Source: Rickettsiales bacterium UBA1997 | GTDB lineage: Bacteria > Pseudomonadota > Alphaproteobacteria > Rickettsiales > UBA1997 | Direction: 5' to 3' | Assembly: GCA_964202895.1 (NCBI GenBank) | Contig: CAXNJM010000001.1 | Span: 909,675 to 973,674 of the forward strand | DNA: 64,000 bases | Part shown: one piece after another, positions 13,675-51,501 of the stretch | How the letters are laid out: the number at the start of each line of letters is the position of its first letter | Numbering within the stretch: the first letter of the stretch is position 1 | Program-made: the position numbers and the translations under genes | Notes under the pieces: generated by a model | What the model saw: the letters and a program-made list of their open reading frames with translations, nothing else | What the model was told of the DNA's origin: nothing | Databases searched by the model: none

Positions 13675-13738
13675 GGCAATAAGGGGTTGAAACCCCTTGT
13701 CCTTTATGATTGGGAAAATAAATTCACCACAAGGGGGG
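13675..13738 (+). repeat. REP-like dispersed element, copy 1
   Basis: GGCAAT + hairpin AAGGGGTT-GA-AACCCCTT + GT...ATGATTG...TTCACCACAAGGGG; aligns with 37081-37141. Confidence 0.65.
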
Positions 13739-43510: not shown

Positions 43511-44965
43511 TTATTCTTTTAAGATCATCTTGCCATCGCTTAGTTCAACATTTATAAATTTTGTTGATTTTAAGCTTTCTATCGAAGAAATTACCTTATT
43601 ATCTTGATTGGTTAAAATAGCAAAGCCACGAGATAATAATTTGCGGTAACTTGAGTTATTTAATAAATTATCGAGATATTCTAATTGCTTTTCTTTTTCA
43701 TTGATATTTTGAATTGCAATATTTGTTATCGATTTTTCAACTTTCGCAAGATTTTTATAGTGATTATCTAATTTATTTGCAAGCTGATTAGCGAAATATT
43801 GGTCTGAAAACCTATTTAAAGCAATTAATTTTTGAGAATTAATGATATAATTATTAAGGTAAAATTGAATATTTTGAAAATTATTATCCACCATTTGTTG
43901 AAATTTAGCTAAATTACTCTCAAAGCCCGAAAAAATATAATCTAGGCGGGTAATTTTATTTTTTGCTGAATCTAGATAATTTAAAATTTGATAATTAATT
44001 TGTTGGGTTAATGTTTTTAACCTATCTTGATATTTTTGATAAATTTCTGCAGGCTCTTTTAATTGATTTTTTAATGACTCTAATTTATGTTCAAGAAAAT
44101 TGTAATGTTTTTGAAATAATTGATGGCAATGAAGATATATTTTATCTAAATGTTTTTGGATTTCATAAAGTGAGGGAACTGCCATTTCTGCAGAAGCGGT
44201 TGGAGTTGGTGCCCTAGCATCGGCAACTAAATCAAGCAAGCTATTATCAGTTTCGTGTCCTATTGCTGATATAACTGGTATTTGCGACATAAAAACGGCT
44301 TTAACAAGAGCTTCATCATTAAAAGGCATTAAATCCTCAAAAGAGCCTCCACCCCTTGCAATTATTATAACATCTGGTTTATTTTGTGATAAATGATTAA
44401 AATATTTCAATGCTTCAATAATTTGTTCGACAGATTTCTCTCCTTGTGTTAGGGTTGGATAAAGCATAATGTGGCTAGGAAAGCGATTGGCAATTCTATT
44501 TTTAATATCCTCAATTACCGCTCCCGTCTCTGAGGTAATAATGCCAATGATTTTTGGCATAAAGGGCAGTGGCTTTTTATGGATATTATCAAAAAAACCT
44601 TCTGCCAATAATTTTTGTTTTCTTTTTTCCAGCATTTCTAATATTGCTCCAATCCCTGCGATTTCTGCCTTATCAACAATAATTTGGTAAGAAGACCTGC
44701 CTTCATAACTTGTTATTTTGCCATTTACAACAATTTCAAGACCATCGCCAATTGCAAAATTAATATTATTAGCAGAATTTTTGAAGCATACTGCACTTAA
44801 TAAGGCTCCGCCTTCTCTTAAATTAAAATAATAGTGCCCGCTACTGGCTTTTTTAAAGCCCGTAACTTCGCCTTTAATGCGAACATAGCCGAATCTGTCT
44901 TCAAGAGTCATTTTTATTGCTCTTGAGAATTCAGTAACTGTAAATTCAGGAATATTGTTTTGCAT
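43511..44965 (-). CDS. xseA: Exodeoxyribonuclease VII large subunit
   Basis: GEVTGFK, SGHYYF, TSETGAVIEDI, ARGGGSFEDL, GHETD, TPTASA. Confidence 0.95.
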   Translation of the reverse strand: MQNNIPEFTVTEFSRAIKMTLEDRFGYVRIKGEVTGFKKASSGHYYFNLREGGALLSAVCFKNSANNINFAIGDGLEIVVNGKITSYEGRSSYQIIVDKAEIAGIGAILEMLEKRKQKLLAEGFFDNIHKKPLPFMPKIIGIITSETGAVIEDIKNRIANRFPSHIMLYPTLTQGEKSVEQIIEALKYFNHLSQNKPDVIIIARGGGSFEDLMPFNDEALVKAVFMSQIPVISAIGHETDNSLLDLVADARAPTPTASAEMAVPSLYEIQKHLDKIYLHCHQLFQKHYNFLEHKLESLKNQLKEPAEIYQKYQDRLKTLTQQINYQILNYLDSAKNKITRLDYIFSGFESNLAKFQQMVDNNFQNIQFYLNNYIINSQKLIALNRFSDQYFANQLANKLDNHYKNLAKVEKSITNIAIQNINEKEKQLEYLDNLLNNSSYRKLLSRGFAILTNQDNKVISSIESLKSTKFINVELSDGKMILKE

Positions 44966-45193
44966 TTAGTTTAGAAAGAGCGAATAAAGAATTTAATGGC
45001 TATTTTAGATAGCAGAGTTTATTGAATTGTTTAAGTTAATCAGCTTAACAGGTTGGGCAGGAATAAGCCTATTCTTCGCTGAATTTACTTTGCACTAAAT
45101 TTAACTTGCACTAAATTTAATATTGATGCAATTTTGAAGTCAATATTTTATTTTTTGATAATATTTTTTTGGTAAAAAATCTAGATTTTTTAT

Positions 45194-45272
45194 GTCGGGA
45201 GCCACCACCACGCAAACCCGGCGTGTATGTTCATATTCGCGCGAAGCTCTTTTATTCTGACATACTCCCGAC
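45194..45272. ncRNA. Unassigned structured GC-rich element (3-way junction candidate)
   Basis: P1 GTCGGGAG/CTCCCGAC, CACGC/GCGTG, TATGT/ACATA within an otherwise very AT-rich 640-bp gap. Confidence 0.5.
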
Positions 45273-45607
45273 GGCGAACATTTTTAACATTAATTTTTTT
45301 TAAGCAAGATTTTTTTTAACAAATTTTACCAACCCAACGAGTTAAAGGGTTTATAGCTATTAATTTTTAGGTAAAATTCTAGTAAAGTTTAATATTATCA
45401 GTTGTCAAATATTGATAAGAAAGCAATAAATTTTAAGTAAATTTGTTGCTTATTAGAAAGTAATTTATATTTTAAAATTTGATTAAATAATCGATAATCT
45501 AATTTAATTTAATCTTCTTTTTCAAGGTGTTAGTGCTTATCAAGCATTGATAGAAATTGTAAAAAGGCTTAAAATAGCCCTCTTTATTAACTTATTTGCA
45601 TCACAAA

Positions 45608-48226
45608 ATGCTTCAAATTATTGCTAAAAAAATTTTTGGTTCGGTTAACGACAGATCAATAAAAGCTTTACAGCTAGATGTTATTAAAATTAATGAGTTG
45701 GAGTCTTCCATTTCAAAGCTTAGCGATATAGAATTGCAAAACAAAACCAACGAATTTAAGGAGTATCTTAAAAATGGTGGCAAAGTTGACGATTTACTTC
45801 ATCAAGCATTTGCAGTGGTTAGAGAAGCTTCTAAAAGAATATTGCAAATGAGGCATTTTGATGTCCAATTAATAGGCGGTATAGCTCTTCATCAAGGAAA
45901 AATAGCAGAAATGAGAACCGGAGAAGGTAAAACCCTAGCCGCAACCTTGCCGTGTTATTTAAACGGCCTTACAGGCAGAGGAGTTCACCTCGTCACAATA
46001 AACGATTATCTTGCTAAAAGAGATTCCGAATGGATGGGTAGGTTATATCAATTTCTTGGACTTACTGTTGGCTGTATAACTTCTGAAAGCGATGAAGTTG
46101 CTAGAAGAAATGCTTATAATTGCGATATCACCTATGCTACTAATAACGAACTCGGTTTTGATTATCTTAGAGACCAAATAAAATATAGCCTTGAAGATAC
46201 TGTACAAAAGCCAAAATATTATGCTATTGTCGATGAGGTTGATTCCATATTAATTGATGAAGCAAGAACTCCTCTGATAATTTCTGGGCCAACTAACGAT
46301 AATTCAAGGCTTTACCAGCAAATTAATCAATTTATTCCACTACTAAAGAAAGAAGATTATCTTGTTGATGAAAAGGAAAAGGCGGTTTCATTTACCGAGC
46401 AAGGCATTGAAAATGTTGAAACGATGCTAAAAAATAGCGGTGTTATTGAAGTTGATTCTAATATCTATGATGCGATAAATATATTACTAGTTCACCATCT
46501 TAATCAAGCATTAAAAGCACATAAAATTTTTAAAAATGAAATTGACTACATTGTTAAAAATGGCTCAGTAATAATCATTGATGAATTTACTGGTAGAATG
46601 CAAGAAGGCAGAAGATTCTCCGATGGATTGCATCAAGCTCTTGAGGCAAAAGAGGGGATAAAAATTCGCAATGAAAATCAAACTCTCGCCTCAATTACTT
46701 TTCAAAATTATTTTCGTCTTTATGAAAAACTTGCAGGCATGACGGGAACCGCTTCCACCGAAGCATTGGAGTTCGAGGAAATATATAATCTCAAAGTAAT
46801 AGAAATTCCAACCAATCAAGCAATTGCAAGAATTGATGAAGAAGATGAAATTTATAAAACAGAAAAAGCAAAACTAGATGCAGTATTCAAAACCATTAAA
46901 ACTTGCTATGAAAAAGAACAGCCAGTTTTAGTTGGAACAATCAGCATCGAGAAATCTGAGCAAATCTCTAAATTACTCAAAGACAATAAACTGCCTCACA
47001 ATGTTTTGAATGCTAAATATCATCAACAAGAAGCTGAAATTGTTGCGCAAGCAGGTGCTCCAAAAGCAATTACTATTGCTACTAATATGGCAGGAAGGGG
47101 AACCGATATTAAGCTTGGCGGTAATATTGAGAAATTGATAGGAACAGAAACTGACCATGAAAAAATAAAAAATATTGAGGCAGAATTTACAAAAAACAAA
47201 GAAAGGGTTATTAAATCTGGAGGGCTTTATATTATTGGCACAGAAAGACATGAAAGCCGAAGGATAGATAACCAATTAAGAGGTAGATCAGGAAGGCAAG
47301 GAGACCCCGGAAATTCCAAATTCTTTCTTTCGCTTGAAGATGACTTAATGAGAATATTTGGCTCTGAGAAGCTTGGATACATGCTCTCTAAATTGGGCTT
47401 GGAAGATGATGAGGCTATTATTCATCCTTGGATTACTAAAACTCTTGAAAAGGCACAGCAGAAAGTGGAAACAAGAAATTACGAAATTCGTAAAAATCTA
47501 CTGAAATATGACGATGTAATGAATCAGCAAAGAAAAATCATCTTTGCATTAAGGGAAGATATACTCACAGGTGCTCAAATTATTGAAAGAATCAATGAAA
47601 TAAGCAAAGAAATTAACCAGCATGTTGTCAATAGCTATTTAAAAAGCAATATAGAGCACAGCGATTATGCATTAGAAGCAGAAAAGCTAGACAATGAAAT
47701 GATTAGAATTTACGGAATTAAAATCAATTCTTATCAAATTATTGAAGAGCAAAATTTTAATCATAAGGCGGTAGAAGAAGTGATAAATCAACAAACTGCT
47801 AAAATATTCAAAGATAAAGTGGAATTATATGGAGAAAGTTCATTTAAACAAGCGACAACTGAAATTTTTCTCTCCACCCTTGATTTTGAATGGAAGGATC
47901 ACCTTCTCTCTCTCGATAAATTAAGAAATTCTATTAATCTTAGGGCTTATGCACAAAAAGACCCTTTGCTTGAATATAAGAAAGAAGCTTTTGACCTATT
48001 TGAAGAAATGTTGGCAAGAATTGAAGAGCAAACAATTTCTTATTTATCTCATTTAAAAATATCGATGCAGAGCGATAGAAATAACGATTTAGACGACATA
48101 ATCAATAATAATCAAATTGCTAATTATCTTAATTCTGGTGATAAAAAAGAGCAATCAAGAAACGAATCTTGTTCGTGTGGAAGTGGAAAAAAATTCAAAT
48201 ATTGCCACGGCAAAATTGCTAGCTAA
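45608..48226 (+). CDS. secA: Preprotein translocase ATPase
   Basis: EMRTGEGKT, DEVDSILIDEARTPLII, TNMAGRGTDI, RSGRQGDPG, C-terminal CSCGSGKKFKYCH. Confidence 0.98.
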   Translation: MLQIIAKKIFGSVNDRSIKALQLDVIKINELESSISKLSDIELQNKTNEFKEYLKNGGKVDDLLHQAFAVVREASKRILQMRHFDVQLIGGIALHQGKIAEMRTGEGKTLAATLPCYLNGLTGRGVHLVTINDYLAKRDSEWMGRLYQFLGLTVGCITSESDEVARRNAYNCDITYATNNELGFDYLRDQIKYSLEDTVQKPKYYAIVDEVDSILIDEARTPLIISGPTNDNSRLYQQINQFIPLLKKEDYLVDEKEKAVSFTEQGIENVETMLKNSGVIEVDSNIYDAINILLVHHLNQALKAHKIFKNEIDYIVKNGSVIIIDEFTGRMQEGRRFSDGLHQALEAKEGIKIRNENQTLASITFQNYFRLYEKLAGMTGTASTEALEFEEIYNLKVIEIPTNQAIARIDEEDEIYKTEKAKLDAVFKTIKTCYEKEQPVLVGTISIEKSEQISKLLKDNKLPHNVLNAKYHQQEAEIVAQAGAPKAITIATNMAGRGTDIKLGGNIEKLIGTETDHEKIKNIEAEFTKNKERVIKSGGLYIIGTERHESRRIDNQLRGRSGRQGDPGNSKFFLSLEDDLMRIFGSEKLGYMLSKLGLEDDEAIIHPWITKTLEKAQQKVETRNYEIRKNLLKYDDVMNQQRKIIFALREDILTGAQIIERINEISKEINQHVVNSYLKSNIEHSDYALEAEKLDNEMIRIYGIKINSYQIIEEQNFNHKAVEEVINQQTAKIFKDKVELYGESSFKQATTEIFLSTLDFEWKDHLLSLDKLRNSINLRAYAQKDPLLEYKKEAFDLFEEMLARIEEQTISYLSHLKISMQSDRNNDLDDIINNNQIANYLNSGDKKEQSRNESCSCGSGKKFKYCHGKIAS

Positions 48227-51289: not shown

Positions 51290-51367
51290 GGGGAAATAAG
51301 TATATAATCACCGAGACATAAAGAAATATGTTGAATTTTGTTTTTTTTGTTTGAGAATTACAAACTT

Positions 51368-51450
51368 GGTGAGAGTGGGCATTTTTATTTGTAAATCTGG
51401 TCAGATTTGAAAGAAAGCATCCATAGCAAGTTTGATGGGTTACTCTCACC
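51368..51450 (+). ncRNA. ffs: SRP (4.5S) RNA
   Basis: Terminal stem GGTGAGAGT/ACTCTCACC; domain IV TCAGATTTGAAAGAAAGCA vs canonical TCAGGTCCGGAAGGAAGCA; directly upstream of dnaX. Confidence 0.85.
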
Positions 51451-51501
51451 TTTGCCACACTTCAGTAAAAATAAAATTTAACCTCCACCTTATTTTCATT
51501 A

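Follow-up and report, generated by a model that had tools for sequence, protein, structure and literature searches.

The 64,000-nucleotide (nt) stretch of the Rickettsiales bacterium UBA1997 genome analysed here (the window) carries, on its minus strand at 45193-45273, a small RNA (sRNA) gene that we are confident is of sRNA-Xcc1 ancestry. The RNA itself is probably a strongly diverged chromosomal member of the sRNA-Xcc1 family (Rfam RF02221), with an antisense action at two sites predicted from its sequence. The gene lies between xseA (43511-44965, minus strand) and secA (45608-48226, plus strand), both confirmed by Pfam, in an island at 45191-45285 that a sequence-only reading of the window had singled out as GC-rich, and this is indeed the case (GC content 0.39-0.44 versus 0.17-0.30 in the flanks). 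The helices noted there are also present, namely an 8-bp P1 (45194-45201 with 45265-45272) and CACGC/GCGTG, together with the CCACCAC linker, and they are borne out by covariation in 103 homologues. That reading had left the element unassigned; it can now be described as a distant RF02221 member and a c4-type antisense RNA, and its boundaries are refined to those given above.

From the comparative alignment, it is clear that the RNA folds as a three-way junction (Table 1). The element was found by BLAST in 15 of 24 other genomes of the family, and a pattern scan in which each prokaryote species was represented by one genome gave 119 stretches, of which about 100 are true hits; nearly all come from freshwater-lake metagenome-assembled genomes (MAGs) titled Rickettsiales bacterium, 'Rickettsia typhi' or Alphaproteobacteria. 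Alignment A1, with 102 distinct sequences, gave the covariance model R1, which finds matches in 90 of 126 family genomes and 11 of 17 genera, with 1-8 copies each; in the 1.42-Mb genome of the window the element is single-copy, as checked by BLAST and by R1. When 103 sequences were fitted to the model, 97.9% of the cells paired and 19 of the 23 base pairs showed compensatory changes on both sides, with six of seven such pairs in P2a and three of three in P2b. None of 500 shuffles reached the observed covariation, and sliding the partner strand by 1-3 columns lowered the pairing to 33-47%. The case for this fold rests on comparison, because single-sequence folding is unremarkable on both strands (z = -1.65 for plus and -0.59 for minus, neither significant).

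Throughout the family, the fold consists of P1 (GUCGGGAG/CUCCCGAC), P2a, an internal loop GAAUAYAAnA/GAAUA, the variable hairpin P2b (capped by UUUAC-type, UUCG or other short loops), P3 with its loop L3 (CACGC-YGGGUUU-GCGUG) and the 7-nt junction strand J3/1 (GUGGUGR), and the GGGAG/CUCCC core of P1 is kept throughout the order. Neither L3 nor J3/1 pairs in the covariation-supported fold, and both are invariant, GGGUUU in L3 and GGUGGUG in J3/1 being identical in all copies and species of the window's family (more than 100 species in 11 genera). The same alignment does away with the switch-like behaviour proposed earlier, as the alternative pairings are not conserved. TATGTC and GACATA, read there as a switch alternative, form the constitutive helix P2a of this very fold and covary; GAACAT at 45276 is not part of the conserved RNA but of the promoter region between +1 and the -10 box, and it reads AAATAT in genomes of the same genus; the pairing of a CCCG loop with CGGG is without support.

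Some loci hold the gene in tandem. Three copies are found at 973-1054, 1450-1531 and 2047-2128 of locus L133, with a TTGACA-type promoter per copy, and two copies lie 354 nt apart in L112, each with its own TTGACA-type promoter; no small open reading frames (ORFs) were found between tandem copies, and both arrays recall the five-copy tandem sRNA-Xcc1 cluster reported for Xylella. In genome G008, seven copies of a longer variant of the RNA are present (L039, L048, L053, L105, L119 and L125). Its P1 is extended and its P2 arm differs, the flanks are conserved, and a TTGACG-N17-TATAAT promoter lies some 50 nt upstream.

The gene was assigned to the minus strand because of its G·U pairs, its promoter, the terminators of its homologues and a sense-oriented group II intron, and the plus-strand reading was accordingly abandoned. 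When read on the plus strand, 128 G·U cells become A·C and pairing drops to 92.9%. A TTGHH box preceded by an A-tract lies at -48 to -30 in 90 of 99 homologues, most often at -34 (47/99), and AAAAT ends at -7 in 66 of 99, which puts +1 at the first base of P1. Downstream, a G+C-containing hairpin followed by a T-run is present in 40 of 99 homologues versus 6 of 98 on the opposite strand; in the window only an A/U hairpin and U run (45191-45174) are seen. In one MAG (L083:6392-6532, minus strand), a group II intron (RF00029, 65.5 bits) interrupts the sRNA gene in the sense orientation after the GAAUA of the P2 loop.

The Rfam scan that had been proposed as a check returned no match in the 671-nt intergenic region, either at gathering scores or at E ≤ 10, but when the RNA was scanned alone, RF02221 came out at the top of 4227 families (minus strand, 45272-45186, 16.6 bits, E 0.98). 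The architecture that defines that family (a 9-bp P1, a P2 with AAUAnAAnA...GAAU around a short capped hairpin, a P3 hairpin and a single-stranded J3/1) is recovered in the window RNA, the P2 loop motif being common to the window RNA and the RF02221 consensus. In other families of the order, R1 also picks up full-length matches that are weaker (27-45 bits), and a single genome often has several. These order-level homologues retain GGGAG/CUCCC in P1, the P2 loop motif and a GNRA-capped P2b, and differ in P3, L3 and J3/1. When 19 such stretches were compared with Rfam, all 22 RNA copies in them matched RF02221 at 32-56 bits, and five exceeded its gathering score (53). A weak BLAST match led further to the Stx phage TL-2011c, whose 74.5-bit RF02221 member is matched by R1 at 25.9 bits (E 3e-5) and whose second RNA copy is matched at 20.6 bits. 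Through this chain of intermediates, the window RNA is homologous to accepted RF02221 members. Two results weigh against a simple assignment. The window RNA by itself scores far under the RF02221 gathering score (16.6 versus 53 bits), so that its membership depends on transitive homology, and R1 gives no match on the c4 RNA of phage P1 itself. Because of the latter, membership is claimed only for RF02221, and only similarity of mechanism for c4.

sRNA-Xcc1 itself, from Xanthomonas campestris, is 88 nt long and has been verified by Northern blotting (PMC2996969). Seven copies, five of them in tandem, are known in Xylella (PMC12189769), and other members occur upstream of symE in integron cassettes (bioRxiv 10.1101/2025.06.18.660453) and, with c4 and isrK, in APSE phages (bioRxiv 10.1101/2020.03.17.996009). 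The window RNA shares with them the three-way junction, the GGGAG/CUCCC of P1, the AAUAnAAnA-hairpin-GAAU of P2, a short P3, a J3/1 of 6-9 nt, a length of about 80-88 nt and the multi-copy habit with tandem arrays, and intermediate sequences connect the two. In contrast to them, it has the invariant GGGUUU in L3 and GUGGUGG in J3/1, a promoter that abuts P1, no adjacent target gene and no cis target sites either upstream (a1/b1) or downstream (a2/b2), and it sits in the chromosome, among housekeeping genes, of bacteria that lack Hfq.

How the relatives work can be read from their flanks. In phage TL-2011c, the RNA copies lie about 40-50 nt upstream of AntA antirepressor genes. One copy has UUUCGAG as its J3/1, complementary to CUCGAAA, and CUUUUGG as its L3, complementary to CCAAAGG, which lies 4 nt further on and overlaps the Shine-Dalgarno (SD) sequence of AntA; the other copy pairs through UAGUUG/UAACUA and CUUUGAAG/CUUCAAAG. 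Among the order-level RNAs, an exact 7-11-nt complement of J3/1 lies 53-146 nt upstream in 23 of 26 cases, compared with 27 of 578 in controls with mismatched RNAs and flanks, and a complement of L3 follows within 30 nt in 18 of 26. In several, a J3/1 complement is also present 9-18 nt downstream. Of the five order-level RNAs with long flanks, four (L188-L190 and L192) have a small HTH_3 (XRE/Cro-like) gene within 4-23 nt, and in L188 the J3/1 complement overlaps the SD/AUG of this gene. The stretches L188-L192 and L193-L212 contain complete c4-type modules, several per genome, in which a1/b1 sites and an RF02221-type RNA are often accompanied by a downstream J3/1 complement.

This layout is that of the c4-icd-ant operon of phages P1 and P7 (RF01695), where the record annotation for P1 gives a1, b1, a 77-nt RNA and then a2 and b2 before icd, and where the a' and b' segments of c4 bind the mRNA, b' at the ribosome-binding site (PMC5320573). 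Because loop and junction covary with adjacent complementary sites in the relatives, L3 is taken as b' and J3/1 as a'. The window RNA resembles c4 in being a three-helix RNA (about 77 nt in c4) with two short exposed antisense segments, which in c4 pair two sites close together, including one at the ribosome-binding site, and its relatives share the order a1 b1, RNA, a2. It differs in that R1 detects no similarity to c4 at the sequence level. Moreover, RNase P excises c4 from a longer precursor, and the operon that c4 regulates is its own, whereas the window RNA seems to be a primary transcript with its targets in trans. The 'C4-like' Group 1 sRNAs of Acinetobacter baumannii offer a precedent for a phage-type antisense scaffold adopted by the chromosome, with many highly expressed copies, and their variable loops have been proposed to retarget the RNA to host mRNAs (PMC5320573). 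In that group the a' regions vary among copies, whereas in the window's clade both antisense segments are fixed across 11 genera.

What sets the window's clade apart is the loss of cis sites. No ordered two-site match was found within 600 nt on either side in any of 103 loci, and CACCAC occurs only three times in their 500-nt upstream flanks. The RNA of this clade has therefore probably been freed from cis targets and would act in trans, because L3 and J3/1 are fixed, no sites lie nearby and the promoter directly adjoins P1. A σ70-type promoter (A-tract, -35 TTGCTT and -10 TAAAAAT) would start a minus-strand transcript at the base of P1, its geometry predicting a primary 5' end there, and RNase P RNA is present in the genome. 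The transcript of about 81 nt would fold as the three-way junction and present L3 (b') and J3/1 (a') as single strands. In RNAs of the c4 kind, these two segments pair two neighbouring sites of an mRNA at its ribosome-binding site and block translation; the clade has lost the a1/b1 sites upstream and the a2/b2 sites downstream, gained the promoter at P1 and fixed both segments. Such an RNA would most likely be trans-acting and independent of Hfq, for which no gene was found in any of the 126 family genomes; ProQ, CsrA and Ro were likewise not found in the genome of the window.

A family-wide scan for CACCAC-N(6-30)-AAACCC, the complements of the two invariant segments, led to a candidate target. 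It showed a recurring locus in genus g13, the leader of a gene for a 269-residue signal-peptide protein; this leader has no SD sequence and reads ...CACCAC-N7-ACCCAAAACCC-N8-CACCAC-AAAUUCU-AAACCC-AA-AUG, with the pair of sites duplicated. The structure model of the protein (mean pLDDT 80.5) has a signal helix and 12 β-strands, and its best Foldseek matches are all outer-membrane barrels. The DUF481 profile (PF04338) matches 4 of 20 orthologues (best E 1.1e-6), with no match in the g13 protein or in that of the window's genome, and the Atlas neighbours of the protein are DUF481 clusters at 0.96. The gene is present in 88 of 126 genomes and in the same genera as the sRNA except g17, and both are absent from g3, g5, g7, g9, g12 and g14. 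Counted per genome, 80 have both, 10 the sRNA only, 8 the gene only and 28 neither, an association that is inflated by relatedness. Of 60 orthologue leaders (-70 to +12), 28 contain CACCAC, 27 contain AAACCC, 17 contain both and 15 have them as an ordered pair; the two motifs are the two commonest of all 6-mers there and often stand directly before the AUG. The corresponding counts are 8, 8, 2 and 2 at 372 other gene starts of the same genomes (2% for each motif) and 6, 7, 0 and 0 at 1154 starts of the window's genome (0.5-0.6% per motif). With one G·U pair allowed per site, an ordered two-site match is seen at only 3 of 1239 gene starts of this genome, and one of the three is the orthologue (G000:C1:1027745-1028458). 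Two near-complete genomes (G021 and G136) that have the gene and no sRNA, even in a sensitive search, have leaders with neither motif.

The mRNA of this DUF481-like outer-membrane barrel is thus predicted as the main target, a proposal that we regard as quite possible though tentative. Binding of the RNA to CACCAC and AAACCC at or near the start codon would repress synthesis of the barrel protein, with the sign of regulation suggested by analogy to c4. Several observations weigh against this prediction. The target was found by searching with the pattern, so the motif enrichment is partly ascertained, and neither orthologues nor genera are independent; genome-wide, the pattern is no commoner than a reversed-pattern control. 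The order and spacing of the motifs vary, several g11 and g8 leaders having AAACCC before CACCAC, or CACCAC in codons 3-4, and leaders of g10 and g15 lack exact motifs despite the presence of the sRNA, while those of g2 and g6 show partial matches only. The leaders are also A+C-rich (0.62 versus 0.53), which raises the chance level somewhat, and AAACCC is not SD-like. In the window's own genome, the match is imperfect, as CACUAC-AAACCU lacks a spacer, includes two G·U pairs and lies some 45 nt before the AUG, and the orthologue has an in-frame TGA. An exact CACCAC is found further upstream in this leader, in a hairpin loop. In this orthologue (G000:C1:1027655-1028458, minus strand), the TGA lies about 30 codons before the end of the alignment, and truncation, a sequencing error or read-through could explain it.

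Other leaders with one or both motifs mark possible further targets, including those of a Skp/OmpH-like protein (L154:3822-4346, plus strand) and of two signal-peptide proteins (L112:2337-2888 and G000:C3:12679-13194, both minus strand).

The variable motif order and the sRNA-positive genera without motifs would be easier to understand if a structured sRNA of the same ancestry bound a protein or small ligand through its junction and P2 loop, as a scaffold or sponge, the leader motifs being an unrelated A/C-rich translation signal, for which the general A+C-richness of the candidate leaders could also be cited. The parts best kept across the order are indeed the junction-proximal GGGAG/CUCCC and the GAAUAnAAnA/GAAUA loop, and not the antisense segments. 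We consider this explanation unlikely, though deserving of attention. The covariation of L3 and J3/1 with adjacent complementary sites in relatives is an antisense signature, the two commonest leader 6-mers are exact complements of the two invariant unpaired segments, and genes for Hfq, ProQ, CsrA and Ro were not found.

The position of RF02221 members upstream of AntA in the Stx phage and of small HTH_3 regulators in related genomes raises another alternative, namely that the RNA is a surviving phage-immunity RNA of the c4 kind that silences an antirepressor or regulator of prophages or incoming phages rather than a host gene. The copy number of 1 to 8 and the tandem arrays would suit such a role. 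It is nevertheless improbable, since no cis target sites lie within 500 nt of the RNA in this clade, housekeeping genes surround it, and the one recombinase family of phage type that recurs nearby resembles XerC/D. Moreover, an L3 and a J3/1 shared without change by over 100 species from 11 genera are hard to square with fast-evolving immunity specificities.

A cis-acting leader, i.e. a riboswitch or attenuator of xseA (minus strand) or secA (plus strand), had made up two of the three options in the sequence-only reading, and its main idea; the third was an sRNA, and only this one survives. The element does sit between both genes, lies on the strand of xseA some 227 nt before that gene, and is followed by a weak hairpin and U run. 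The RNA is, however, most improbable as a leader of either gene, because its neighbouring genes vary: flanking proteins fall into many small clusters, the largest of which cover 13 of about 100 loci, recurrent families include a hybrid histidine kinase, DnaE, the XerC/D-like recombinase, LysR, MTHFR and IDH, and the closest ORF downstream is in convergent orientation at 51 of 89 loci. No steady 5'-UTR (untranslated region) position before a functionally coherent set of genes was found. The search for homologues and covariation suggested earlier confirmed conservation and did not tie the RNA to secA; the mismatched G·U cells of the plus strand, the lack of conserved alternative pairings and the homology to a trans-acting, Northern-verified sRNA (PMC2996969) all speak against a leader. 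Finally, a dispersed mobile repeat of the MITE or RPE kind without RNA function can be practically dismissed: the multi-copy genomes, such as G008 with its conserved flanks, and the reported travel of the wider family on phages, integrons and plasmids are outweighed by the single copy here, the own promoter at a fixed distance (90/99 homologues), the strand-specific compensatory changes and the lack of visible terminal repeats or target duplications. With more than 100 homologues and one copy in this genome, neither a lack of conservation nor a MITE, which had been named as possible refutations, was found.

The proposed trans pairing at the translation start of an outer-membrane barrel mRNA recalls the enterobacterial sRNAs MicA, RybB, MicF and OmrA/B, which repress outer-membrane proteins in an Hfq-dependent manner through a single linear seed. 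The window RNA is unrelated to them in sequence and fold and would use two segments presented on a three-way junction. It is possible, and we put it forward tentatively, that a c4-type RNA borne by a phage or integron was captured by an ancestor of this family of small-genome freshwater alphaproteobacteria, shed its cis sites, took on a promoter and two newly evolved, fixed antisense segments, and became an Hfq-independent, two-pronged trans repressor of the barrel protein, and perhaps of other envelope proteins. If true, a chromosomal sRNA-Xcc1 member would for the first time have a concrete target and a mechanism. The family has been repeatedly reported in plant pathogens, integrons and phages, with no function given in the literature cited here. 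The members examined behave like phage c4, with loop and junction covarying with adjacent target sites, and one lineage would have been taken over by its host, in bacteria from which Hfq, ProQ and CsrA are missing. As a prediction, the target is precise enough to be tested by compensatory mutations. The case also illustrates that Rfam gathering scores overlook diverged branches, whose assignment can be rescued by intermediate sequences.

Table 1. Parts of the sRNA gene and its flanking signals in the window.
Feature	Position	Strand	Support
Small RNA core, about 81 nt, three-way junction (P1, P2a/P2b, P3)	45193-45273	-	model R1, 92.7 bits, E 8.8e-19
P1 5' strand, GUCGGGAG	45265-45272	-	pairs with 45194-45201; 99% of cells pair; 7/8 pairs compensatory
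P2 arm: P2a helix, internal loop GAAUAAAAGA / GAAUA, variable P2b hairpin	45226-45264	-	
P3, CACGC/GCGUG, 5 bp, closes L3	45221-45225 with 45209-45213	-	
L3 loop, CGGGUUU, proposed b' antisense element	45214-45220	-	GGGUUU invariant in 102 sequences
J3/1 junction strand, GUGGUGG, proposed a' antisense element (CCACCAC linker of the sequence-only reading)	45202-45208	-	GGUGGUG invariant
P1 3' strand, CUCCCGAC	45194-45201	-	covariation alignment
-35 box, TTGCTT, preceded by A-tract	45302-45307	-	TTGHH at -48 to -30 in 90/99 homologues
-10 region, TAAAAAT; +1 at about 45273	45280-45286	-	read from sequence; AAAAT ending at -7 in 66/99 homologues
A/U-only hairpin, AAAAAAUCUAGAUUUUUU, and U run; weak terminator candidate	45174-45191	-	self-complementary match

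Several other roles for the RNA were considered and rejected. It does not replace a universal RNA, since a complete set of tRNAs, tmRNA, RNase P RNA and a candidate SRP RNA are all encoded at other places in the genome. A tRNA-like reading was dropped, since ARAGORN found no tRNA or tmRNA and the length of the P2b loop varies, and so was an SD mimic, as the 16S rRNA has a normal 3' end, against which J3/1 would leave a U·U mismatch. A generic duplex-energy target search gave no outlier. In a strict two-site search of this genome, the only recurring matches were three sites in a dispersed palindromic repeat, and these were judged to be chance matches because only one loop variant gives AAACCC. 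The repeat family has the form GGCAACAAGGGG-loop-CCCCTTG ... AACTTCACCAC-AAGGGG-loop-CCCCTTGTTGCC and is found at 13681-13698 of the window, at G000:C1:636523, 1159510 and 1166702 and at other places; the genome has about 46 AAGGGG(N6-8)CCCCTT hairpins, some of them in tandem arrays. A search of the literature on the discovery of GC-rich intergenic RNAs found no mention of this RNA motif.

6S RNA (RF00013) was not detected in this genome. A probable SRP (4.5S) RNA lies at 51365-51456 of the window (plus strand; RF00169, 37.8 bits). Its score falls slightly short of the gathering score (40), so that the standard Rfam scan of the window misses it. The window also has a hairpin AACCC-N11-GGGTT at about 45333-45356, between the sRNA promoter and secA, which is found in other genomes of the genus with the stem retained and a different loop, and which could be an element of the secA 5'-UTR.

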